In this document: piece by piece, positions 2,444-51,693 of the stretch
How the letters are laid out: each line of letters opens with the position of its first letter
Position numbering within the stretch: position 1 is the first letter of the stretch
Assembly (NCBI GenBank): GCA_964487475.1
Contig: CAZAPM010000010.1
Coordinates: 3,005-67,004, forward strand
DNA: 64,000 nt
Direction of reading: 5' to 3'
Source: an uncultured Planctomycetales bacterium
Lineage (GTDB): Bacteria; Omnitrophota; Gorgyraeia; Gygaellales; Profunditerraquicolaceae
Made by a program: the position numbers and the translations under genes
Notes under the pieces: model-generated
The model's input: only the letters and a program-made list of their open reading frames with translations
What the model was told of the DNA's origin: nothing
The model's database searches: none

Positions 2444-2446
2444 CCC

Positions 2447-4579
2447 ATGCCCAAGAAGATCGATATCACGTTAGCCGACGCGGTCGCCGAAAGAGGTTGG
2501 GTGGCACGGGAGCAGCTGGCAGGGCTGCTTAAAGAAGCGGATGCTTCCGGTGCGCCCCTGGGACAGGTGCTGGTCAAAGGCGGATTCCTGACCGAAGCGA
2601 AGGTCCAGGAGGTGCTGAGCGAGACCTTCAAACTTTCCTGTATCAGCCTGCGCCAGGCCCAGATCGACAAGGAGGCGCTGGAACGGGTGCCGGTCAAGAT
2701 CGCCACGTATTATAAGTTCATCCCGTTGAAGATGCGGGGAGGGGTGTTGGAAGTGGCGGTGGCGTATCCGCTGGATATCAAGACCATGGACGAGGTACGC
2801 ACCCAGGTGGGAAGCGATATCGAGGTGTTCCTGGCTTCCGCCTCCGAGATCGCCGACGGGCTGAAACAGTACTACGGCCTGGCGGCGGACACTCTGGAGC
2901 GTATCCACTCCGAGTCCGGGGCTCCGGGCGAGCCGCCGGCGCCGAGCAGTTTCGAGAAGGTCGAGGATATCGAGAAGCTGGCGGGGGATGCCTCTGTGAT
3001 CAAGCTGGTCAACCAGATCATCCTCGACGCGTACCGCAAGCGCGCCACGGACATCCATATCGAGCCCTTCCGGGAGGGCATGGCCCTGCGCTACCGTATC
3101 GACGGGGTGTTGTACGACGCCAACGTGGCGACCGATATCTCCCGGTACATGAATGCCATCATCTCCCGGATCAAGATCATGTCCAACTTGAATATCGTGG
3201 AGCGGCGGCTGCCCCAGGACGGGCGGGCCATCGTGCGCGTGCAGGAGCAGATGCTGGACTTGAGGATCTCCACCATCCCGACACCGTTCGGGGAAAGCGT
3301 CGTGATCCGCATCCTGCCCACGCATATGCTTTTCTCCCTGGAGAAGCTGGGGCTTTCCAGCGGCGACCTGCGCATCTTCGAGGACCTGATCCGCAAGCCC
3401 CACGGGATCGTCTTCGTCACCGGCCCGACGGGAAGCGGCAAGACGACTACGCTCTACGCCGCGCTTTCCTGCATCAATACCAAGGACCGCAAGATCATCA
3501 CTATCGAGGACCCGATCGAATACGAGATGGCGGGGATCACCCAGATCCAGGTGCAGCCGGAGATCGGCCTGGATTTCGCCCGGGGGCTGCGCAGTATCCT
3601 GCGCCACGACCCGGACGTGATCATGGTCGGAGAGGTGCGCGACCTGGAGACCGCGGAGATCGCCATCCGCGTGGCGTTGACCGGGCATCTGGTCTTTTCC
3701 ACCCTGCACACCAACGATGCCGCCAGCGGCGTGACCCGCCTGCTGGATATCGGGGTGGAGCCTTATCTTCTGGCCTCCAGCGTCGAGGCGTTCATCGCGC
3801 AGAGGCTTATCCGGACCATTTGTCCCGACTGCAAGTACGAGGATAAAAGCATCCCGCAGGAACTGCGCGAACTGATCCGACAGGAGCTGGGTCTTGATTC
3901 CATCTCGGCGGTCAAGGTGTACCGGGGCCGCGGATGCACCGCCTGTAATTTTACCGGGTTCTTCGGCCGTACCGCCATCTATGAGGTGATGCGCATCGAG
4001 GATTCGGTGCGGGGGCTGATCTTGAAGAAAGCGCCGGCCGACCAGATCAAGAAAGCGGCGGTGGCTGCCGGAATGCATCTTTTGCGCCAGGACGGATGGG
4101 AGAAGGTGCTGCAGGGGGTTACTACTCCGGAGGAGGTCTTCAAGGTGGCTCCTTCGGGCTCCGGCCAGCCGGGTGCGCAGATGCTCTCTTCCGACAGCGC
4201 GATCATCTCCGAGCTTCAGGATAACCGCAGGGTGTTCCCGCGCCTGTATTGCGAGGCGACCTTGCGTTACAACAGGTTCGATCCTTCCGGTTCCAAGGGG
4301 GGGGCGGCCAGGGAAGAGGAGTTCAGCCGCACGACGAACATCTCCGCCGGCGGCATACTTTTTGTTTCGCAGGAGCAGCTTTCCATCGGTACCTTGCTCG
4401 AGCTTTCCATCGTGCTTCCTGACGGGCAGGAACCGGTGGTGTGCTTAAGCCGGGTGGTCAGGGTCGAGAACGCCGGGCAGGAAGGGTTTTACAATATCGC
4501 GGTGTGTTTCCTGGATATCACCAGCGGTCAGCGGGCGCGCCTGTCGAAGTACGTCGACGGCCACCTGCAGGGGCCATAA
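2447..4579 (+). CDS. gspE: GspE/PilB-family secretion ATPase with N-terminal MshEN-like domain and C-terminal PilZ domain
   Basis: Walker A GPTGSGKTTTLYA, Walker B/His box, tetracysteine CPDC...CTAC. N-terminal motif PLGQVLVKGGFLTEAKVQEVLSE. About 130 extra C-terminal aa carry PilZ signatures RRVFPR (RxxxR) and NISAGG ((D/N)xSxGG). Confidence 0.88.
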   Translation: MPKKIDITLADAVAERGWVAREQLAGLLKEADASGAPLGQVLVKGGFLTEAKVQEVLSETFKLSCISLRQAQIDKEALERVPVKIATYYKFIPLKMRGGVLEVAVAYPLDIKTMDEVRTQVGSDIEVFLASASEIADGLKQYYGLAADTLERIHSESGAPGEPPAPSSFEKVEDIEKLAGDASVIKLVNQIILDAYRKRATDIHIEPFREGMALRYRIDGVLYDANVATDISRYMNAIISRIKIMSNLNIVERRLPQDGRAIVRVQEQMLDLRISTIPTPFGESVVIRILPTHMLFSLEKLGLSSGDLRIFEDLIRKPHGIVFVTGPTGSGKTTTLYAALSCINTKDRKIITIEDPIEYEMAGITQIQVQPEIGLDFARGLRSILRHDPDVIMVGEVRDLETAEIAIRVALTGHLVFSTLHTNDAASGVTRLLDIGVEPYLLASSVEAFIAQRLIRTICPDCKYEDKSIPQELRELIRQELGLDSISAVKVYRGRGCTACNFTGFFGRTAIYEVMRIEDSVRGLILKKAPADQIKKAAVAAGMHLLRQDGWEKVLQGVTTPEEVFKVAPSGSGQPGAQMLSSDSAIISELQDNRRVFPRLYCEATLRYNRFDPSGSKGGAAREEEFSRTTNISAGGILFVSQEQLSIGTLLELSIVLPDGQEPVVCLSRVVRVENAGQEGFYNIAVCFLDITSGQRARLSKYVDGHLQGP

Positions 4580-8056: not shown

Positions 8057-8998
8057 TTGGATTATAATATGCGTACAAGCCGGGGTTCATTGTTCATAGT
8101 CGCTCTTTGGTCGCTTTGTTTCCTGGGCGCGTTGGCGGTGGTAGTGGCCGGGGTGGTCAGGCAGAAGATGACGCTTTCCTCGAGGCTGGATGCCCGCGCG
8201 CAGTTACGGCAGACGGCCCGCGCCGCGGTGGAGCTGGGATTGTTCCGTATCGCCGAGCGGGCAGGGGGAACGGGTTATTTCTCCGGAAGGGACCCATTGC
8301 TGCAGGCGCATCCGGAGGTGCCTTGCCGCTGGAGCATCTCCGACGAGGAATCCCGGGTGAACCTCAACACTGCCGATATGTTCGTGCTGCGGCGTCTGAT
8401 GCAGGAGGTGCTGCGCGTCGACGAGATGCAGGCGCAGGAACTGGCGGCGGCGGTGGTGGACTGGCGGGATGCGGACAGCGAATTATCCGTTCCCATCGGC
8501 AGCGCGGAAGAGGCGCAGTATCTGAGCCAGCAGTACCCGTATAAGCCCAAGAACGCTCCCTTCGAGTCCTGGGTGGAGCTGGGGCTGGTGAAGGGGTTTA
8601 CCGACGAGTTTGTGGAAGCGCTTTTTCCGTATGTGACGGTGTTCGGGATGGGGAAGGTCAACGCGAACACCGCGCCGGCTCCGGTGCTGCGGGCGCTGGG
8701 CATCCCCGAGGAGCTGGTGGAGGCGATCCTGGAGTATCGCCGGGGGCAGGATGACGCGGAGGGGACCGCGGATGATAATGTTTTTGAAGCGGAAGGGTCG
8801 ATCGTTCCGAAGTTGAGCCAGTACCGGAGATTGAACGATCAGGAGTTGGCGGAGTTGACCCGGGCCGGCGTGTTCCTGGGAGTGGCCTCGGAATATTTCC
8901 GTATCCAGGCTCAGGCCCGGCGAAACGTCAAAGAGACGTACGAGATGTATGCGGTGGCCGATGCGGCGGGCACACCGGTGTATTGGCGCGAACCATAA
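8057..8998 (+). CDS. gspK: GspK-like minor pseudopilin
   Basis: N-terminus RGSLFIVALW...LAVV is typical of GspK. Helix-hairpin-helix-like VNANTAPAPVLRAL. An alternative ATG at 8069 is also possible. Confidence 0.65.
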   Translation: MDYNMRTSRGSLFIVALWSLCFLGALAVVVAGVVRQKMTLSSRLDARAQLRQTARAAVELGLFRIAERAGGTGYFSGRDPLLQAHPEVPCRWSISDEESRVNLNTADMFVLRRLMQEVLRVDEMQAQELAAAVVDWRDADSELSVPIGSAEEAQYLSQQYPYKPKNAPFESWVELGLVKGFTDEFVEALFPYVTVFGMGKVNANTAPAPVLRALGIPEELVEAILEYRRGQDDAEGTADDNVFEAEGSIVPKLSQYRRLNDQELAELTRAGVFLGVASEYFRIQAQARRNVKETYEMYAVADAAGTPVYWREP

Positions 8999-21611: not shown

Positions 21612-21655
21612 AGAGCGCTCCGGGATCCGTCCCGGGGCGCTCTTTTTTGTGTTTT
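21612..21655 (+). terminator. rho-independent terminator after hppA
   Basis: GAGCGCTCCGGGATCCGTCCCGGGGCGCTC hairpin followed by TTTTTTGTGTTTTT. Confidence 0.7.
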
Positions 21656-21685
21656 TCCCCTTTAAAATACGATATAATAACCGGT

Positions 21686-22288
21686 ATGGACGACCTGGAG
21701 CTGATCAGGCGGTGCGCACAGGGCGACCAGGAAAGCCGTCAGCTGCTGGTGCGCACTTATTCTCCGGTAGTGGTAAGCGCGATAAGGTATACTTTTTCGC
21801 TGTATGCCGCGCAGCTGTGTTCCCGCCAGGATGTGCTGCAGGACCTCTGCCACGAGATATTCCTCAAGCTTTTCGACCAAGGGTGTAAAAGGCTGCTGAC
21901 CTTTACCGGCGCGTACGGCGCCAGCCTTTCCGGGTGGCTGCGCCATGTGGCGGCGAACCGGGCCGTTGACCATCTGCGCCGCATGCGGCCGCACCTTTCC
22001 CTGGACCAGGCGATAGGGGAAGGGTTTACCGTGGCCGATCTGATACCTGATCCGCAGGAATCAGTGCTTACGGCGGCGGAGCGCCTTGAGGAGCGGCAGC
22101 AATTGGCCGAGTGTATCGCGCAGCTGGATACTCTTTCCTTGTTCATCATCCGGGCGAACGTATTCGCCGGGGTGTGCGCCAGGGAGCTGGCGCTTCTGCT
22201 GGGCATATCCCGCGGCGCGTTCGATATGCGTAAATCGCGGATCATGGAAAAGCTGCGGGAGTGTTTCCGGAAGAAAGGTTTTCTGTGA
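21686..22288 (+). CDS. ECF-type RNA polymerase sigma factor (sigma-70 family)
   Basis: About 200 aa. Region 2 (LLVRTYSPVVVSAIRYTF...DLCHEIFLKLF) and region 4 HTH (ARELALLLGISRGAFDMRKSRIMEKLR). GATATAAT -10-like sequence upstream. Confidence 0.75.
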   Translation: MDDLELIRRCAQGDQESRQLLVRTYSPVVVSAIRYTFSLYAAQLCSRQDVLQDLCHEIFLKLFDQGCKRLLTFTGAYGASLSGWLRHVAANRAVDHLRRMRPHLSLDQAIGEGFTVADLIPDPQESVLTAAERLEERQQLAECIAQLDTLSLFIIRANVFAGVCARELALLLGISRGAFDMRKSRIMEKLRECFRKKGFL

Positions 22289-22327
22289 GCGCAGGCGTTG
22301 CGGTGCGTCTTAAGGGTGAGGTGGATC

Positions 22328-23050
22328 ATGGAAGATAAAAAATTCGCGGGGGTGCTGAAAAGGGCGGTTTCCTCCTGGCAGGAGGGGTTGGGTGCGCGCG
22401 CAGCGTCGCATCCTCCGGAGGAGCTCGTTGCCGCGTTCGCCGAAGGCAGGCTTCAGGGGAAGGATATGACCGAGGTCATGGCGCATCTTTGCGTGTGCGA
22501 CCTTTGCCTGGCGGGATATGCCGCAGCCCAGGGGGCCATTCATGAGCCTTTGGTCCAGGTCCCGGAAGCGCTCCGGCAGCGCCTGGATGCGCTGGCGAGG
22601 GACCCCTCTGCCGCAGGATTCGTGCCCAAGGCGTTCCATATTGCCATACTGCTCAAGGAAAAAGCCTTCGAGCTCCTTTCTGCGACGGGTGATGTGCTCG
22701 TGGGCCAGGAGTATGTGCCCGGTGCGCTGGTGCGCGGCAAGCATCAGGGGGATTTTCCCGATACGCTGGTGGTGGTCAAGGATATGGAGCGGGTACGCAT
22801 GAGCATTAAGTGCGAGGTGCGGGGCGGCAAAGACCTGGCGTTGACCGTGGAGGTCACCGAAAAAGAGACTGCCAGGCCCTGCGCGCACGCCCGCATCAGC
22901 CTGTGGCGTGAAGGGGTCGAGCTGGAGTCTCTGGCCTCGGACCGGGGTGCGGTGTCATTCGAGCATGTGGGCGCGGCACGGTATAATGTGCGTGCTGAGG
23001 CTCCTGCGGGTACCCTGGCAGGGGAAGTGTCTTTGGAGATCAGGGAGTGA
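22328..23050 (+). CDS. putative ZAS-type anti-sigma factor (HxxxCxxC)
   Basis: Immediately downstream of the ECF sigma. HLCVCDLC zinc-binding anti-sigma motif near the N-terminus. No TM. RBS GGGTGAGG. Confidence 0.55.
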   Translation: MEDKKFAGVLKRAVSSWQEGLGARAASHPPEELVAAFAEGRLQGKDMTEVMAHLCVCDLCLAGYAAAQGAIHEPLVQVPEALRQRLDALARDPSAAGFVPKAFHIAILLKEKAFELLSATGDVLVGQEYVPGALVRGKHQGDFPDTLVVVKDMERVRMSIKCEVRGGKDLALTVEVTEKETARPCAHARISLWREGVELESLASDRGAVSFEHVGAARYNVRAEAPAGTLAGEVSLEIRE

Positions 23051-25275
23051 GCATGCCGGGAAAAGACTCCGTATCCCGTCCGATGGTCTTGGAGGTGCTT
23101 TCCCAGGACCCCCGGCTGGCGATGAGCCTTTTCTTCCAGGATGAGTCGGGGCATACCGTGCGTTACTACCACCAGCGGCTGGTCGATCCCCGGCAGATGG
23201 AAAGTCTGAGCCGCGAAGTGACCGGCATCCTTTATAAATCCTACCTCGTCGGACCCCGTCAGGAGCACATCCAGAATTCCCTCAAGAAGGTCGGGCAGAT
23301 GATGTGGGACCATTTCCTTGCCCGGCAGGTGAAAGAGGAGCTGCTCGCGCAATCCGGGGGAGAGCTTTCCCTGGTGATCGACGAATCCCTGGTGCGGGTG
23401 CCCTGGGAGCTGATGTATGACGGGCAGGATTTTTTGTGCGTGAAATTCAGCGTAGGCCGGCTGGTGCGGGCTTCCCGCCAGGCCGAAGCGATCCGTTACC
23501 GGCAGATGCATACCTCTGCCCGTATGCTGGTGATCGCCAATCCGACCGGAGGGCTTCCCGCCGCGTACCAGGAAGGGGTGTGCATCCGTGATCAGCTCGA
23601 CGGCAAGCGCCGGGATATTTCCGTGGACCTGCGGGCGGAGGAGGCGGACAGTCTGTACCTGAAAAAGAACCTGCGCGACTATGATATCGTGCATTTTGCC
23701 GGGCACTGCGAATACGACACCACCCAGCCGCACCGCGCCGGATGGGCCTTGAAGGACGGACTGCTTAATTTCCAGGATGTGCTGATGATGGGGGAGGGCC
23801 GGACGGCGATGCCCTCGATCGTTTTCTCCAACGCCTGCCAGTCCGCGCAGGTGATGGAAACCGGGCCGGCGGCATTCGACCAGCAGCACCGCACCTACAG
23901 TTTCGCCTCCAGTTTCCTTTTTGCGGGAGTGCGGCATTATATCGGTACGGTCGGTAAGGTGGATGACCGGGCGAGTCTGAGTTTTGCCCTGGCGTTCTAC
24001 AAGGCGCTGGCCAAGGGAAAGGCTACCGGTGAATGCGTGCGGCAGGCGCGCATATCACTGATGCGCGAATACGGGACCGCCAATCTTGCCTGGGCCCAGT
24101 ACCTGATGTACGGCGATCCCGGCCATGTCCTCATCAAGAAGCTTCCTCCCAAAAAGAAACTGGCGCGTCATTTATCCGCTCCTCCGGGCTGGATGAAGAA
24201 AGCCGGGGTGGCGGCGGCAGCGGCGGCGGTGTTCGTGGCGGTCGCGGGATCGGTGCTGGCGCTCCGGCCGCAGGAGAGGATCCTTCTGGTAAGGGCGAAG
24301 ACATACCTTTCCCAGGGGAATAATCAGGAGGCGGTGGCGGCAGCGGAGATGATCACCGCCAGGCGGGCGGGGGCTCTGGCCGCGTATCCGGTGCTCTTCG
24401 AAGGGTATGTCCGGCTGGGGAAGAAGGAAAAGGCGCGGCAGGCGCTCATGGCCTATGCGCTGTTAAGCGAAAAACACCGCGCGTACGAGAACCTGGCAGA
24501 TGCCTATATCTCCCTGGGGTGGTTCCATTACCTGGGAGGAGAGTACGAGAAAGCCATGGCTTTCTATGAAAAAGCGTTATCCGTATCCCGGCAGCAGCAG
24601 GACCTCCTGCATGAGGCGGTCGCCCTGCGGCGCATGGCGGTATGGCACATCGATAAGGGGGATAACGGCAGGGCGCTGGAACTGCTTTCCCGAAGTGTGG
24701 AGATCCATTCCCGTTTCGCCAATGATCCGGAGCATCAGTATCACATGGCGTGCGCGTATTTCGACATGGGGCTGGTGTTCATCAATAAGAACGAATTCGA
24801 GGTCGCCAGGCAGTTCTACCGCAAGAGCGCGGAAGGTTTCCAGAAGTTGAAGCGGGACAACGAGCTCAGCGATTATTACTTCAATCTGGGGGAGATTTTC
24901 CTCTTCGAGAAGCAGTACCAAAAGGCGAAGGAGCATTATGCCGAGGGTTTGCGCATCGACCTGCTGCATGATAACCGGGCGAACCTGCCTTCCGATTACG
25001 TGATGATCGGGGAGCTGTCCTTTGAGATGGGGGATCTGGTCGAAGCGGAGCGCCATTTCCAGCTTGCGGTGCAGGCAGGCAAGCGGATCGATTCCCCGGC
25101 TGACCTGGCGCAGGCGTACCACGGACTGGGACGGATATACGCGAAAAAAAATCATATCTCCAAGGCTAGAGAGCACTTACGACTAGCGCAGGAACTCTAT
25201 TATTCCCTCGGTTTTCCGGAATATCAGCAGATCAAGGAGGAGTACGCGGGCCTGTCTTCAGCCGGCCGGCCTTGA
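23047..25275 (+). CDS. CHAT-domain (caspase-like) protein with a central TM helix and C-terminal TPR repeats
   Basis: CHAT His/Cys dyad contexts DIVHFAGHCEY and IVFSNACQSAQ. TM KKAGVAAAAAAVFVAVAGSVLAL. About 300 aa of TPR-like repeats. An alternative ATG at 23053 has a better RBS. Confidence 0.7.
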   Translation: MSMPGKDSVSRPMVLEVLSQDPRLAMSLFFQDESGHTVRYYHQRLVDPRQMESLSREVTGILYKSYLVGPRQEHIQNSLKKVGQMMWDHFLARQVKEELLAQSGGELSLVIDESLVRVPWELMYDGQDFLCVKFSVGRLVRASRQAEAIRYRQMHTSARMLVIANPTGGLPAAYQEGVCIRDQLDGKRRDISVDLRAEEADSLYLKKNLRDYDIVHFAGHCEYDTTQPHRAGWALKDGLLNFQDVLMMGEGRTAMPSIVFSNACQSAQVMETGPAAFDQQHRTYSFASSFLFAGVRHYIGTVGKVDDRASLSFALAFYKALAKGKATGECVRQARISLMREYGTANLAWAQYLMYGDPGHVLIKKLPPKKKLARHLSAPPGWMKKAGVAAAAAAVFVAVAGSVLALRPQERILLVRAKTYLSQGNNQEAVAAAEMITARRAGALAAYPVLFEGYVRLGKKEKARQALMAYALLSEKHRAYENLADAYISLGWFHYLGGEYEKAMAFYEKALSVSRQQQDLLHEAVALRRMAVWHIDKGDNGRALELLSRSVEIHSRFANDPEHQYHMACAYFDMGLVFINKNEFEVARQFYRKSAEGFQKLKRDNELSDYYFNLGEIFLFEKQYQKAKEHYAEGLRIDLLHDNRANLPSDYVMIGELSFEMGDLVEAERHFQLAVQAGKRIDSPADLAQAYHGLGRIYAKKNHISKAREHLRLAQELYYSLGFPEYQQIKEEYAGLSSAGRP

Positions 25276-25300
25276 AATCAGTGCACTTTTGTGGTATATT
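25271..25300 (+). promoter_or_regulatory. sigma70-like promoter (TTGAAA-17-TATATT, extended TGTGG)
   Basis: cTTGAAAtcagtgcacttttgtggTATATT lies about 45 nt upstream of the riboswitch aptamer. Confidence 0.5.
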
Positions 25301-25344
25301 CTTTTATGTAATTTGACATTTTGACAATTTGGTAGCTTTACCTA

Positions 25345-25490
25345 CTGACAAAGGCAAACCCGCAGTAATGCGGGGGCGCAAAGCGACAGGTCCTGGAGCG
25401 ATCCAGGACGGCTGCGTTACCAAAGGGGAATTGCACGGTGCCATTGAGCCCCCGGAGCGTAACGTACGCCTTCGGGGGTTTTTTATTGCT
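25345..25490 (+). promoter_or_regulatory. candidate c-di-GMP-I (GEMM) riboswitch with terminator-type expression platform
   Basis: AAAGGCAAACC + CGCA-GUAA-UGCG hairpin + GGGGCGCAAAGC + P2 hairpin GGUCCUGGagcgAUCCAGGAC + GUUACC match GEMM-I conserved blocks. Followed by GAGCCCCCGGAGCGTAACGTACGCCTTCGGGGGTTTTTTATT, then RBS GAAAGGGGG and ATG 25507. Confidence 0.65.
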
Positions 25491-25506
25491 CGAAAGGGGG
25501 TCGACT

Positions 25507-25773
25507 ATGGAGCATACGGAAAAAGAGCAGAAGGTCCGCACGCATCGCGTGATCACCATGCTTGACCGCAAGGAGGTGGAGTTCCTTGATAAACTGGGCA
25601 AGGACGCGCTTTTTTCCACCGGCAGGAAGCTTTCCTATAATGATATCCTGCGCGGGCTGATCGATTTTGCGATGGAGGTGGGGGTCACCGGAGAGAAGGT
25701 CGATTCGGAGAAGGCCCTGAAGGACCAGATGCTCAGGCAACTGGGACAGGCAGGAAGCGGGAATCATAATTAA
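25507..25773 (+). CDS. small hypothetical protein, first gene of the riboswitch-controlled operon
   Basis: 88 aa. RBS GAAAGGGGG. No signal peptide. No recognised domain. Confidence 0.5.
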   Translation: MEHTEKEQKVRTHRVITMLDRKEVEFLDKLGKDALFSTGRKLSYNDILRGLIDFAMEVGVTGEKVDSEKALKDQMLRQLGQAGSGNHN

Positions 25774-25799
25774 CGAGGCAGCAGAACAAGGAGGAAGAG

Positions 25800-26186
25800 A
25801 TGAGGAACAAGTTCATGATGGCGGTGTTGGCGTTATGCATGGCGGTACCGGTAATGGCGTGGGCAGGAGAGAACTTCGAGGCGTTCAACCTGGAAGAGAT
25901 CAATTACGAGAATTCCGCGGTGAACAAGCTGGGACGCGGCCTTATCAATACGGCGACGTTCTGGGTGGAGATCCCCGGCCGGGTGGCGCAGGTCTCTGCC
26001 GAGGAGAATCCGCTTTTGGGCGTGACCCTGGGCGGAGCGGAAGGGACGTTCAACGCCCTGGTGCGCGGCGTATCCGGAGTGTTCGATACGGTCACCTGTG
26101 CGTTCCCTCCGTATGACCAGCCGGTGGTGCTGCCGGAGTACGCGTTGAAGTCCGCGGATCAGCATCTGACGGAGTGGTTGTGGTAA
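25800..26186 (+). CDS. small secreted protein (signal peptide)
   Basis: MRNKFMMAVLALCMAVPVMAWAGE signal peptide. 128 aa. RBS AAGGAGGAAG. Confidence 0.55.
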   Translation: MRNKFMMAVLALCMAVPVMAWAGENFEAFNLEEINYENSAVNKLGRGLINTATFWVEIPGRVAQVSAEENPLLGVTLGGAEGTFNALVRGVSGVFDTVTCAFPPYDQPVVLPEYALKSADQHLTEWLW

Positions 26187-26239
26187 TGCGCATGTGAGAA
26201 AGTGCCGCCTCCTGCGTCTTAGGATGCAGGAGGTGGCAT

Positions 26240-27745
26240 ATGAAAAAAGGATTATTCGTAGCAGCGGTGTGGATGGTGTGTGCGGGCAGGGCCTGGGCAG
26301 GGGAGTATGCCTGGGAGGAACTTTCCGGAGTGCCTTCCTGTTATAGCGTGCAGGAGGATAAGGATTCCAGCCGCAGGGTGCTGGCAGGCGCGGCAGGCGG
26401 GGTGTACCTTTCCGAGGATGCGGGTATTGGCTTCCGTCAGGTTTTGCGGATATCCGGTTCCTCGGATAAGGATATCCGCGTACAGCAGGACCCGTTTGAT
26501 CTGCGGGTGTGGTATGCCGCGACGGGTTCCGGGTTGTACCGGAGCACGGATTCCGGACGGTCTTGGCAGCGTATCTTCAAGGGAGAGGCTGACGGTTCGG
26601 GGCGGGTGAATTCGGCGGGGGTCGTCCCCGGTTTTTTGTATGCGGCGACCGATGCCGGCCTGTTTCTAAGCCGCGACGGAGGCAGGCGATGGCAGCGGGA
26701 AGCGGGGGCCATCGGCACGCTGCCGGTCATTGCGGTCGCGGGATCGCTGGAGGCAGGGACGGCTATTTTGTGGGCGGTGGCCGCAGGGGAATTATACGTC
26801 TGTACCGCTCCCGGAGCAGGATGGTCGTGCGTAAAGCACCGGGAGGAGTCTTCCCCCTGGATCGAGGACCTGGTCCCGGGAAAGGGGCTGGGGGTGTATG
26901 CGGCGACTTCCCGCGGAGTATTCCTGGCAGAGGCGGCAGGGGGGATAAAATTTCAGCGGCTGGCGGTGTACGGACTGTTCTCTTTGGAGATGCGCCGGGT
27001 GTCATTCGATAAGGCGCAGGATACGCTTTATGCGTGCACCGGCTCGTCCGTATTCGTATATGATCGTGAGCGCTGGAAAGAGATAAGTTTCGAACTGCAG
27101 GCGGGGGAGGTACGCGGTATCTCTGCGGCTTCCTCCTTTGCGGTGTATGTCGCGGGGAGCAAGGGGTTGTTCAAGGCGAGCATCGTGCCGGAAACCTTCC
27201 GCGGGGAAATATCCGCGCAGGATCCGGTCCCCGGGATCGGTGAAGTGCAGCAGGCGGCGATCGCGTATGCGCAGGTGGATCCGGAGATGGTGGCGCGATG
27301 GCGAAGGCAGGCATCGGCCAAAGCCTGGATGCCGCAGTTATCCGTATCCTTTGCGCGCAACACCAGCGACCTTTGGCATTGGGAGAGCGGGTCGACCACC
27401 AAAAGCTGCGACGATGCCCTGATGCGGGGTAGGGATTCCCTGGATTGGGACGTGCGCGTAAGCTGGGACCTTGCCGAGGTGGTGTGGAACAAGGACCAGG
27501 CTTCCATCGATGCGCGGGCACGGTTGCTCTCGGACTTACGGGAACATCTGCTCGAAGAGGTGACCAGGCTTTATTATGAGCGCAAGAAGCTGCTGCAGGA
27601 TCCCGGGGGAGCCACCCTGGAGGCCAGGGCGGGAAAGAAGGCGGAGCAGGAGCTTAAGGTCGCTGAACTGACGGCTCTGCTGGACGGATATACCGGAGGA
27701 TTTTTTTCCGGGCGTTCCGTGCAAAAAGGTATCGAAAGGGATTGA
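26240..27745 (+). CDS. secreted BNR/Ycf48-like beta-propeller repeat protein with C-terminal coiled-coil region
   Basis: Signal peptide. Repeated SxDxGxxW motifs (LSEDAGIGF, STDSGRSWQ, SRDGGRRWQ). RBS GGAGG. Confidence 0.6.
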   Translation: MKKGLFVAAVWMVCAGRAWAGEYAWEELSGVPSCYSVQEDKDSSRRVLAGAAGGVYLSEDAGIGFRQVLRISGSSDKDIRVQQDPFDLRVWYAATGSGLYRSTDSGRSWQRIFKGEADGSGRVNSAGVVPGFLYAATDAGLFLSRDGGRRWQREAGAIGTLPVIAVAGSLEAGTAILWAVAAGELYVCTAPGAGWSCVKHREESSPWIEDLVPGKGLGVYAATSRGVFLAEAAGGIKFQRLAVYGLFSLEMRRVSFDKAQDTLYACTGSSVFVYDRERWKEISFELQAGEVRGISAASSFAVYVAGSKGLFKASIVPETFRGEISAQDPVPGIGEVQQAAIAYAQVDPEMVARWRRQASAKAWMPQLSVSFARNTSDLWHWESGSTTKSCDDALMRGRDSLDWDVRVSWDLAEVVWNKDQASIDARARLLSDLREHLLEEVTRLYYERKKLLQDPGGATLEARAGKKAEQELKVAELTALLDGYTGGFFSGRSVQKGIERD

Positions 27746-27747
27746 TC

Positions 27748-28863
27748 ATGGAATTCGATCTGCTTTCTCTGGTGTTTATGATTACCCAGGCGGTCACTGC
27801 CGTGATCGCCATAGTGTGGCTGCTTCTGCATGGCCGCCGCCAGTCCGATCAATCAAAGGTAAGCCAGCTGCAGGAGGCGCTTGCGGCCAAGGAAGCGGAG
27901 CTCGCGTGTCTTCTCAGTAATCAGGAGAAGTCCCGTCAGGAGGCATGCCGCCGCGCTTCGTTGCAGCCACAGGCACCGTCGCAACCTTTGCCAAAACGGT
28001 CTGCGGTCCCTGACGTTCCTGACGGAGGGAAGGATAAAAAGATCGGGGAGATACTTCTGGAGCATCATTTCATCGTTAAGGACATCCTGGACAGGGCGCT
28101 GGAGCATCAAGTGCAGCACGGAGGAACGATCACGCAGTATCTGCTTGCCTACGGGTATATCGATGAAAGCCAGTTGGCCAAGTGCCTTTGCTCCCAGTTT
28201 AAGATACCGTACCTGCCCCTTTCTTCATGCGATATCCCGGAGCGGGTGATAAAACTCCTTCCGGTCGATATCGCGGAAAAATACCTGGCCATACCCGTGG
28301 ACCAGGCCGGGGATTCATTGATGGTGGTGATGGCCGATCCTTTGGACCCCAAAGCGCTGGCTACGATAAAGAAGGTGACCGGGTGTACGTTAAAGCCTTT
28401 TGTGGGAATACTTTCCGAGATAGTGGGAGCCCTGGAGACGTATTATCATGTGAATATCCGCGGCGCAGCCTCATCCAAGAGCGCATATCCTTTCGTAGTC
28501 GAGTCTCCTAACTTCCGGGGTATCGAGCGTCGGGAGGCGATACGCTTCAAGTGCGAGATGGATGTGCAGGTCCCGATAAAAGGTATCTATCAGAGCCAGA
28601 AGACTAAGGACATCAGCCGCGACGGATTTTGCTTCGAATCTGATTGCGCGCCACCCATGGGGTCGATCCTTACCATGGAAGTGTATCTGCCGAAAGAATT
28701 TAGCTCACTTCCCATCAGGGCGCTGGTGCAGGTGGTGCGTATCCTGGAACGGGGAGAACACCGATATGAGATAGGCGTTAAGACCGTGGAGATCGCAAAG
28801 CATGACCTGGCGGCCATCATTAATTACGCTTCCAGCAAGATGTTGGGAGAAAAAAAGGGATAA
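27748..28863 (+). CDS. membrane-anchored MshEN-domain plus PilZ-domain protein (putative c-di-GMP receptor)
   Basis: N-terminal TM. MshEN motif KIGEILLEHHFIVKDILDRALEHQ plus a second GspE-N-like repeat. C-terminal PilZ motifs RREAIR (RxxxR) and DISRDG (DxSxxG). Confidence 0.7.
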   Translation: MEFDLLSLVFMITQAVTAVIAIVWLLLHGRRQSDQSKVSQLQEALAAKEAELACLLSNQEKSRQEACRRASLQPQAPSQPLPKRSAVPDVPDGGKDKKIGEILLEHHFIVKDILDRALEHQVQHGGTITQYLLAYGYIDESQLAKCLCSQFKIPYLPLSSCDIPERVIKLLPVDIAEKYLAIPVDQAGDSLMVVMADPLDPKALATIKKVTGCTLKPFVGILSEIVGALETYYHVNIRGAASSKSAYPFVVESPNFRGIERREAIRFKCEMDVQVPIKGIYQSQKTKDISRDGFCFESDCAPPMGSILTMEVYLPKEFSSLPIRALVQVVRILERGEHRYEIGVKTVEIAKHDLAAIINYASSKMLGEKKG

Positions 28864-28874
28864 TATTTATGGCT

Positions 28875-28910
28875 TGACACTGTAAGTTTTTGATGGTATT
28901 ATACTTGCGA
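28875..28910 (+). promoter_or_regulatory. sigma70-like promoter (TTGACA-17-TATTAT)
   Basis: ggcTTGACActgtaagtttttgatggTATTATac upstream of the HU-like gene. Confidence 0.55.
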
Positions 28911-28950
28911 GTAATAAGGTTGCTGTTGAGGTACTACGAGGGGGTGCCTG

Positions 28951-29223
28951 ATGACCAAGAAAGACATAATCCTGAAAGTAGCTGACGAAACCAACTTAAA
29001 ACAGATAGACGTAAAACGCGTGGTGCAGCGTACGTTTGACTGTATCGTCGAGGCCTTGCAGCGCGGCGAGAAGATCGAGTTGCGTAACTTCGGCGTTTTC
29101 AAGATCAAACAGAGAAAAAGCCGCACCGGGCGTAATCCCCGTACCGGCCAGGTCGTTCCCGTCCCTCCTCGGAAAGTCGTCGTTTTCAAGCCGGGCTTGG
29201 AGATGAAGCAGGACGTGAAATAA
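28951..29223 (+). CDS. HU/IHF-family DNA-binding protein
   Basis: 90 aa. RNFGVFKIKQRKSRTGRNPRTGQVV arm region typical of HU/IHF. Confidence 0.85.
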   Translation: MTKKDIILKVADETNLKQIDVKRVVQRTFDCIVEALQRGEKIELRNFGVFKIKQRKSRTGRNPRTGQVVPVPPRKVVVFKPGLEMKQDVK

Positions 29224-51619: not shown

Positions 51620-51693
51620 GCCCCTGTAGCTCATAAGGATAGAGCAGCGGTTTCCTAAACCGCGTGCGGCAGGTTCGATTCCTGCCAGGGGCA
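51620..51693 (+). tRNA. tRNA-Arg (anticodon CCU)
   Basis: Manual cloverleaf: acceptor GCCCCTG/CAGGGGC, D-stem GCTC/GAGC, anticodon stem GCGGT/ACCGC with loop TTCCTAA, T-arm GCAGG-TTCGATT-CCTGC, discriminator A. CCA is not encoded. Confidence 0.8.

Follow-up and report, generated by a model that had tools for sequence, protein, structure and literature searches.

Class I riboswitches for cyclic dimeric guanosine monophosphate (c-di-GMP-I, or GEMM-I, riboswitches; Rfam family RF01051) are known with both ON and OFF polarities. Cd1, which lies upstream of the flagellar operon of Clostridioides difficile, is an OFF switch of the terminator type, and the variant family c-di-GMP-I-GGC (RF03167) was reportedly defined in the 2017 PNAS paper of Weinberg et al. 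In the binding pocket (numbered as in the Vibrio cholerae Vc2 RNA), G20 and C92 each pair with a different one of the two guanines of the ligand, while GEMM-Ib RNAs that are specific for cyclic GMP-AMP (cGAMP) carry an A at position 20 (PMC6140456). Our literature search on Omnitrophota and riboswitches retrieved no riboswitch study of this phylum, and the two terms were mentioned together only in papers on the ComFB receptors of cyclic dinucleoside monophosphates (c-di-NMPs). Here we describe a riboswitch that precedes a four-gene operon (g1 to g4) in a 64,000-nt stretch of contig CAZAPM010000010.1 (positions 3,005–67,004, forward strand; hereafter the window, to which all coordinates refer unless a related locus is named). 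The contig belongs to assembly GCA_964487475.1, from an uncultured Planctomycetales bacterium that GTDB places in the Omnitrophota (Gorgyraeia; Gygaellales; Profunditerraquicolaceae). We put the probability at about 0.65 that a canonical c-di-GMP-I aptamer acts here as a transcriptional OFF switch of the operon.

Like the RF01051 consensus and Vc2, the window aptamer consists of two hairpins closed by a P1 helix, carries the conserved joiners GGCAAAC and CGCAAAGC, has its first hairpin capped by a GNRA loop, retains the equivalents of G20, A47 and C92, and forms part of a 5' leader that also contains an expression platform. It differs from them in its GUAA loop, in lacking the CUAAG/UAUG receptor, in a P1 that is interrupted by an internal loop, in its host phylum, and in that RF01051 is outscored by RF03167 at the site. 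With Cd1 it shares a separate intrinsic terminator after the aptamer and a ligand that is expected to favor termination. However, the genes that follow are not flagellar but encode ribbon-helix-helix (RHH)-like, TIGR04073, propeller and PilZ proteins, and the polarity is here read from folding.

The aptamer and its fold

Rfam covariance models, run with cmscan at gathering thresholds, gave a single riboswitch match in the window, at 25344–25425 on the plus strand, where RF03167 scored 66.3 bits (gathering score 59, E = 1.9e-13), a match far beyond chance. A second model of clan CL00126 passed its own gathering score at the same site, its score being masked by clan competition; this is presumably RF01051 (gathering score 35). 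An earlier note on this DNA, made from the letters and their open reading frames (ORFs), had called the leader a candidate c-di-GMP-I riboswitch and proposed RF01051 as the model with which to check it. The clan match is above the gathering score, but the best model is the GGC variant rather than RF01051. A permissive Rfam scan of 25250–25560 revealed no other credible element. In addition, a covariance model that we built from six aptamers found upstream of g3 homologs (model R1) scored the window aptamer at 97.9 bits.

Every conserved GEMM-I block that the earlier note had named is present in the sequence. GGCAAACC occupies 25353–25360 and leads into the first hairpin, CCCGCA-GUAA-UGCGGG (25359–25374), the GUAA loop of which (25365–25368) is of the GNRA type; GCGCAAAGC follows at 25376–25384, the second hairpin spans 25382–25418 and GUUACC lies at 25416–25421. 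P1 is formed by an outer helix, in which 25341–25343 pairs with 25424–25426, and an inner helix, in which 25346–25347 pairs with 25421–25422. The CUAAG/UAUG receptor of the RF01051 consensus was not found in 25382–25418, and the RNA may be an example of what we take to be a receptor-less, "type 2" arrangement of c-di-GMP-I aptamers.

The fold is supported by covariation. In an alignment of 24 matches (20 clear aptamers and four marginal or truncated ones), which was fitted to the model so that its figures lean towards the structure, 95.5% of cells were paired and 17 of the 21 pairs had changes on both sides; none of 500 shuffles did as well, and sliding the partners along reduced pairing to 30–47%. 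Compensatory changes are also plain in the raw aptamer sequences. Taken at the sequence level, this evidence makes it very probable that the window element is a functional riboswitch of the c-di-GMP class.

Expression platform and switch polarity

A promoter scan gave the sigma-70-type promoter upstream of the aptamer (25272–25300) ten of 12 matches plus the TG of an extended −10; the expected transcription start is near 25307. Both hexamers, −35 and −10, keep their place in 16 related leaders (alignment A8). The strong intrinsic terminator that the earlier note had placed 3' of the aptamer was borne out: the hairpin at 25446–25481 has 16 interrupted base pairs and a folding energy of −24.5 kcal/mol (z −5.2, with none of 200 shuffled sequences as stable), and a U6 tract comes after it. 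A simple consensus terminator scan did not list 25446–25484, probably owing to the bulged long stem. In 13 of 14 related leaders a terminator is located in the same place with another sequence (ACCCUAAAAG...CUUUUAGGGU6, i.e., ACCCUAAAAG-loop-CUUUUAGGG-U6-7), and this retention of position while the sequence differs argues for selection on structure. The ribosome-binding site expected after the terminator was likewise located, with the ATG of g1 behind it.

The aptamer, which extends to 25426, does not overlap the terminator, which begins at 25446. Indeed, when the aptamer helices were enforced in constrained folding the terminator still formed (−59.9 kcal/mol). To mimic the nascent transcript, the terminator 3' arm was blocked, and the best fold was then an anti-terminator of −47.2 kcal/mol, compared to −40.8 kcal/mol for the fold with the aptamer enforced. 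In the first helix of this predicted anti-terminator, 25414–25421, which runs from the last part of the second hairpin through A91 and C92 to the first nucleotide of P1, pairs with 25457–25465, and in the second, GGGG at 25425–25428 pairs with CCCC at 25450–25453. The anti-terminator takes up C92 and the P1 3' strand of the aptamer together with the terminator 5' arm. The gap of ~6 kcal/mol between the anti-terminator and the aptamer fold is within what ligand binding can pay. Six relatives (L025, L019, L039, L018, L031 and L067) are predicted to form a corresponding pairing, of UAGGG in the P1 3' strand with CCCUA in the terminator 5' arm, and in four of them the full-length minimum free energy (MFE) structure exchanges the P1 and terminator strands.

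These features suggest the following mechanism. Binding of c-di-GMP would lock P1 and the pocket (G25353, A25380 and C25420), leaving the hairpin of 25446–25484 free to form, and transcription would terminate before g1. In the ligand-free state the aptamer 3' end (25414–25428) would pair with the terminator 5' arm (25450–25465), and RNA polymerase would read into g1, g2, g3 and g4. We infer an OFF design because the aptamer hides the strand complementary to the terminator 5' arm and because aptamer and terminator can co-exist; on the folding energies and the conserved complementarity, high c-di-GMP probably stops transcription. The earlier note had given no polarity for the switch.

The opposite polarity, in which c-di-GMP prevents termination and induces the operon, is the alternative that survives best, though we consider it unlikely. 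The class is generally known to include ON switches, induction of secreted proteins and a PilZ protein at high c-di-GMP would fit the usual logic of the sessile state, and the anti-terminator predicted in four relatives (L006, L009, L017 and L048) is very weak, so that the thermodynamic case for OFF is not universal. Yet an ON design needs the bound aptamer to sequester part of the terminator, while in the window the two form together, and the only sequences complementary to the terminator 5' arm are those hidden in the bound aptamer.

Clan membership and ligand

To assign the pocket positions, we aligned the window with the consensus lines of RF01051 and RF03167. The former reads ...GGCAAAc...GACGCAAAgC...GcUgCC and the latter ...GGCAAACC...GACGCGAAgC...GcUGCc. 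The G20 and C92 equivalents are identical and the lines differ at one pocket position, where A47 of RF01051 is replaced by G in RF03167, a replacement that would explain the name "GGC". The corresponding sequence in the window is GGCGCAAAGC; its nucleotide 25380 is an A, so that the defining G of the variant is missing. Its pocket is formed by G25353 (G20), A25380 (A47) and C25420 (C92), and these three nucleotides are kept in all Omnitrophota relatives of simple architecture. Because this is the parental G20/A47/C92 combination, we file the element as a canonical c-di-GMP-I aptamer, lacking the defining features of both the GGC variant and GEMM-Ib; the pocket nucleotides point to c-di-GMP as the ligand.

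A true GGC-variant riboswitch with an altered ligand would account for the Rfam ranking, as RF03167 is the top-scoring model above its gathering score, not only in the window but also in five relatives, and the RNA resembles that family in its short second hairpin, its AAAGGCAAACC joiner and its paired P1 ends. This explanation is nevertheless very improbable: the sole pocket difference between the consensus lines is the conserved G in place of A47, and the window and all its simple-architecture relatives have the A. Moreover, no homologs of g1, g2 or g3 lie near the true G47 aptamers from metagenomes (L112, L157 and L095). A pattern scan of metagenomes for G47 variants yielded mostly chance matches and only these three real aptamers, in unrelated contexts: L112 2739–2822 (−), L157 266–359 and L095 4409–4483. 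L095 also bears an A47 aptamer, at 8862–8956.

Sensing of 3',3'-cGAMP in the manner of GEMM-Ib is less probable still. The overall fold and the clan are common to the Geobacter cGAMP riboswitches (PMC6140456, PMC8835794), and some natural GEMM-I RNAs are bispecific (PMC6140456), but at the position of A20 in GEMM-Ib RNAs the window carries G25353, and a G is likewise present in all relatives of simple architecture. Equally hard to sustain is the idea of a decayed, non-functional aptamer-like sequence with a terminator that merely ends the upstream CHAT-TPR gene, which its location ~210 nt 3' of the CHAT-TPR stop (25275) would in principle allow, as a conserved promoter separates that gene from the aptamer, all helices are kept intact across species by compensatory changes, and the aptamer-terminator-g1 arrangement is retained in locus L208 despite different upstream genes (pilus and type II secretion system (T2SS) genes).

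Several observations weigh against a canonical OFF switch. The best Rfam model at the site is the GGC variant, for which, to our knowledge, no ligand has been established, and the competing RF01051 score is the one hidden by the clan. The RNA also lacks the 11-nt GAAA tetraloop-receptor motif that the RF01051 consensus shows, its loop being GUAA. In L006, L009, L017 and L048 the predicted anti-terminator has just 3 bp, which makes the OFF logic less clear. Finally, the unconstrained full-length MFE structure of the window leader is without P1, which is normal for P1 helices that are stabilized by ligand, yet gives no positive support. For annotation, a score-based use of Rfam would tag the window RNA, and with it an entire clade of Omnitrophota relatives, as the orphan "GGC" variant. 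The pocket nucleotides indicate ordinary c-di-GMP sensors, and clan-level best-match labels therefore need a check of position 47.

Genes of the operon and their distribution

The earlier note had described a five-gene operon; we found four ORFs (Table 1). Its account of their products, a small protein, two secreted proteins including a BNR-like propeller and a membrane protein with MshEN and PilZ domains, was matched by domain and structure searches. Overall, the proposal of a c-di-GMP-I class riboswitch with an intrinsic-terminator platform before a plus-strand operon ending in such a transmembrane (TM) protein is supported by the Rfam match, covariation, folding and domain matches. The earlier note also speculated that the secreted proteins may be matrix or adhesion factors that leave the cell by the T2SS/type IV pilus (T4P) system, an idea on which none of our results bears.

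Table 1. Features of the riboswitch and its operon, in window coordinates
Feature	Position	Strand	Details or basis
Sigma-70-type promoter	25272–25300	+	−35 TTGAAA, 25272–25277; extended −10 TGgTATATT, 25292–25300
Leader box	25313–25334	+	Three tandem 8-nt units, TTGACAtt, TTGACAat, TTGGTAgc; between −10 and aptamer
c-di-GMP-I aptamer	25341–25426	+	Rfam match, model R1, covariation
Predicted anti-terminator (ligand-free state)	25414–25465	+	Constrained folding; inner small hairpin
Intrinsic terminator	25446–25484	+	GC-rich hairpin 25446–25481; U6 25479–25484
Ribosome-binding site	25493–25500	+	AAAGGGGG; then ATG at 25507
g1, 88-aa conserved small protein	25507–25773	+	RHH-like model; gene most tightly linked to the riboswitch
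g2, 128-aa secreted protein, TIGR04073 (exosortase system-associated)	25800–26186	+	NCBIfam
g3, 501-aa secreted Ycf48-like propeller protein	26240–27745	+	AlphaFold2 (AF2) model, Foldseek
g4, 371-aa TM-coiled region-MshEN-PilZ protein	27748–28863	+	Pfam, NCBIfam, translation

The assignment of g2 to TIGR04073 is based on an NCBIfam score of 70.6 bits (cutoff 50), and its translation has a signal-peptide-like N-terminus; a literature search on TIGR04073 returned nothing relevant. Residues ~24–314 of g3 form a seven-bladed Ycf48/BNR-like β-propeller in the AF2 model (predicted local distance difference test score (pLDDT) 81.3; Foldseek match to Ycf48, E 1e-12). Residues ~333–500 form a conserved α/β C-terminal domain without known relatives, which had no match among PDB sequences; the Foldseek search with the whole model was dominated by the propeller. 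The g4 gene begins 2 nt past the g3 stop, with an alternative TTG start at 27742, and its product starts with an N-terminal TM helix and is 100% identical to a 371-aa NCBI protein (P0001), for which an exact-protein look-up gave no record. Both its MshEN domain (PF05157, 60.1 bits versus 23.1) and its PilZ domain (PF07238, 38.8 bits versus 22.5) exceed their Pfam cutoffs, the NCBIfam c-di-GMP motif NF053729 scores 40.7 bits (cutoff 38), and the RxxxR (RREAIR) and DxSxxG (DISRDG) motifs are intact in the translation. By its PilZ and MshEN features g4 is a predicted c-di-GMP receptor. Immediately 3' of g4 is a strong promoter (28874–28902), a near-consensus TTGACA-17-TATTAT with TG, which drives a 90-aa HU/IHF-like gene located between g4 and hisS (28874–29223); from this promoter and gene we take the operon to end at g4.

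The nearest relatives of the operon proteins are from metagenome-assembled genomes (MAGs) of Candidatus Omnitrophota. Members of the g3 family occur in at least 572 stretches from GTDB representative genomes, almost all with an Omnitrophota label; 80 of these stretches were taken for comparison. Rfam riboswitch matches lie upstream of g3 homologs in six of the first 15 loci, and model R1 finds an aptamer in 20 of the 80, 17 of them on the g3 strand, 0.5–1.5 kb upstream, and three on the opposite strand. The order riboswitch-g1-g2-g3 recurs in eight GTDB loci (L006, L017, L018, L019, L025, L031, L039 and L067), with identities to the window proteins of 65–75% for g1, ~50% for g2 and ~35% for g3, and the conserved riboswitch-controlled unit in the relatives is g1-g2-g3. 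Independent look-ups of another four g1 homologs each found an aptamer directly upstream (L203/L204, L205/L206, L207, with two paralogs, and L208), so that every g1 copy examined in related genomes is preceded by the riboswitch. The other genes vary. In L208, pilus/T2SS genes and the gene of a GH2-like protein take the place of g2 and g3 as neighbors of g1. Downstream of g3, the relatives have housekeeping genes (thioredoxin, pta and ackA) rather than g4, which follows g3 only in the window genome; close g4 homologs elsewhere are found after gltX. A stand-alone PilZ gene is located between riboswitch and g3 in L048 and L021, and a receiver (REC) domain in L074. Because the riboswitch precedes every g1 copy examined while g4 and g2/g3 vary, the stable partner of the riboswitch is g1, and PilZ proteins enter the operon repeatedly, by different routes. 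A distant MshEN-PilZ gene, 27–28% identical to g4, lies upstream of g3 in two single-cell genomes of Omnitrophota (L063 3354–4154 and L079 3477–4274), a third way in which PilZ proteins adjoin g3.

The leaders of the relatives have further features. Most contain, between terminator and g1, a tiny and very basic ORF of 34–58 aa (e.g., MMKRILHKALARAKKQHKKHMNFLKALRLFEGMPLFGIRR; L025 4020–4142, L006 214–318, L008 4627–4731), which is not in the window or L207a, and in several, a tandem pair of intrinsic terminators follows the aptamer (L006 96–190, L009 4495–4570, L017 3940–4010). Some aptamers bear insertions of 60–130 nt, with one or two extra hairpins, between the equivalents of G45 and C46 (L012 1099–1252, L030 3481–3640, L074 391–539 and L205 ~3560–3787, the last also with an insertion in the 5' joiner); the L012 aptamer is assigned to RF01051 by Rfam at just 40.5 bits. 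The opposite-strand examples are GEMM-I aptamers with a GAAA loop (L026 4795–4891 (−), L080 4733–4838 (−) and L043 6649–6745 (−)). That of L026, where a CHAT-TPR gene lies directly upstream of g3, is located between these two genes and points into the 3' end of the former with no ORF on its own strand, while that of L043 is just 3' of g3 and points back into it; such aptamers may act as antisense riboswitches (compare PMC9943018). In an Omnitrophota MAG (L003), a group II intron (D1–D4 and the catalytic domain; 106–278 and 1784–1857) lies upstream of a g3 homolog.

Upstream of the riboswitch operon (21647–25275) are genes for an extracytoplasmic function (ECF)-type sigma factor, a probable anti-sigma protein and a CHAT-TPR protein. 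The same trio, with a zf-HC2 anti-sigma protein, precedes the operon in L205 (1–3476), and the CHAT-TPR proteins of the two loci are 730–742 aa long. Elsewhere in the window, a stand-alone MshEN protein (1955–2440) is directly followed by a GspE/PilB-type ATPase (2444–4576) with an N-terminal MshEN and a C-terminal PilZ domain. Domain searches confirmed both genes, as well as the tally that the earlier note had given for the window, three MshEN domains and two PilZ domains. A search of the window ORFs of at least 150 aa with GG[DE]EF and HD-GYP regular expressions, a crude test, gave no match. Comparison of 25000–29000 with plasmids by megablast also gave none, and a tRNA gene is located at 51620–51693 (Rfam, 62.7 bits).

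The g1 protein belongs to a small family, for which a search of 1.84 billion proteins gave 190 representatives at E ≤ 1e-3. Searches with g1, including all 40 aligned members, gave no meaningful match in Pfam and NCBIfam, hidden Markov model searches of the g1 alignments against PDB sequences gave nothing below E 0.1, and Foldseek returned no match. Its model is RHH-like with an extra third helix. Compared to known RHH factors, g1 has no significant sequence or profile similarity to the TraM N-terminal domain, the PutA RHH domain, CopG, NikR, AmrZ or the c-di-GMP-binding CdbA; in the comparison of g1 with RHH proteins, NikR, ParD, ParG, AmrZ, CdbA and MetJ all came out lower, and hhalign against N-terminal sequences of CopG and NikR was insignificant. 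On the model, g1 is likely an RHH transcription factor and probably binds DNA.

About one-fifth of the listed family members are 180–260 aa long. Eight of ten long proteins tested carry a C-terminal PilZ domain (P0365, P0369, P0373, P0386, P0411, P0416, P0435 and P0476) and one an N-terminal REC domain (P0472). The contigs of the fusion genes are too short to show whether a riboswitch lies upstream, and in L211 another gene abuts the fusion. Because it is fused to signal-receiver modules, the g1 domain behaves like an output domain, and the fusions tie it to c-di-GMP and two-component signaling independently of the riboswitch.

The leader box, the units of which were read directly from the sequence, is kept nearly base for base across Omnitrophota relatives (alignment A8), and in L207a it consists of three perfect TTGACA units; an automated repeat search did not report the units. 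The box may, speculatively, be an operator for the g1 protein, or it may be an RNA element. A small hairpin, GGUAGCUUUACC (25331–25342), overlaps the P1 5' strand. We also considered a long-range alternative helix, in which UUUGGUA of the box pairs with UACCAAA of the aptamer 3' tail, and dropped it, as changes in L012, L030 and L048 are uncompensated.

Together, these features raise the tentative, and on present evidence doubtful, possibility that g1 founds a family, so far undescribed, of Omnitrophota RHH transcription factors with a link to c-di-GMP, in which the riboswitch controls a regulator and the regulator a regulon, with autoregulation, with paralogs coupled by PilZ or REC fusion and with co-regulation of g3. 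If so, g1 may also control its own gene through the tandem TTGACAnn units, three of 8 bp each, that lie at +5 to +27 of the leader, the fused paralogs would reach the same coupling by their fusion to a PilZ or REC domain, and g3, which we describe as a near-universal Omnitrophota propeller protein, would be a co-regulated surface output.

The riboswitch class is known and its anatomy here is ordinary, and knowledge of the class itself is unchanged; what is added is a member from Omnitrophota, a phylum for which our literature search retrieved no riboswitch study. Further contributions are the corrected Rfam variant label, an OFF polarity that we infer along with a strand swap conserved in its logic, a close association with an uncharacterized family of RHH-like domains that also occur in fusions with PilZ or REC, and a connection to a secreted propeller protein present across the phylum. 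If the OFF polarity holds, high c-di-GMP would silence the gene of a putative regulator and also, in the window genome, that of a dual-domain receptor for c-di-GMP, which would amount to negative feedback on sensing. The locus offers a concrete entry into the c-di-GMP signaling of the uncultured phylum Omnitrophota.

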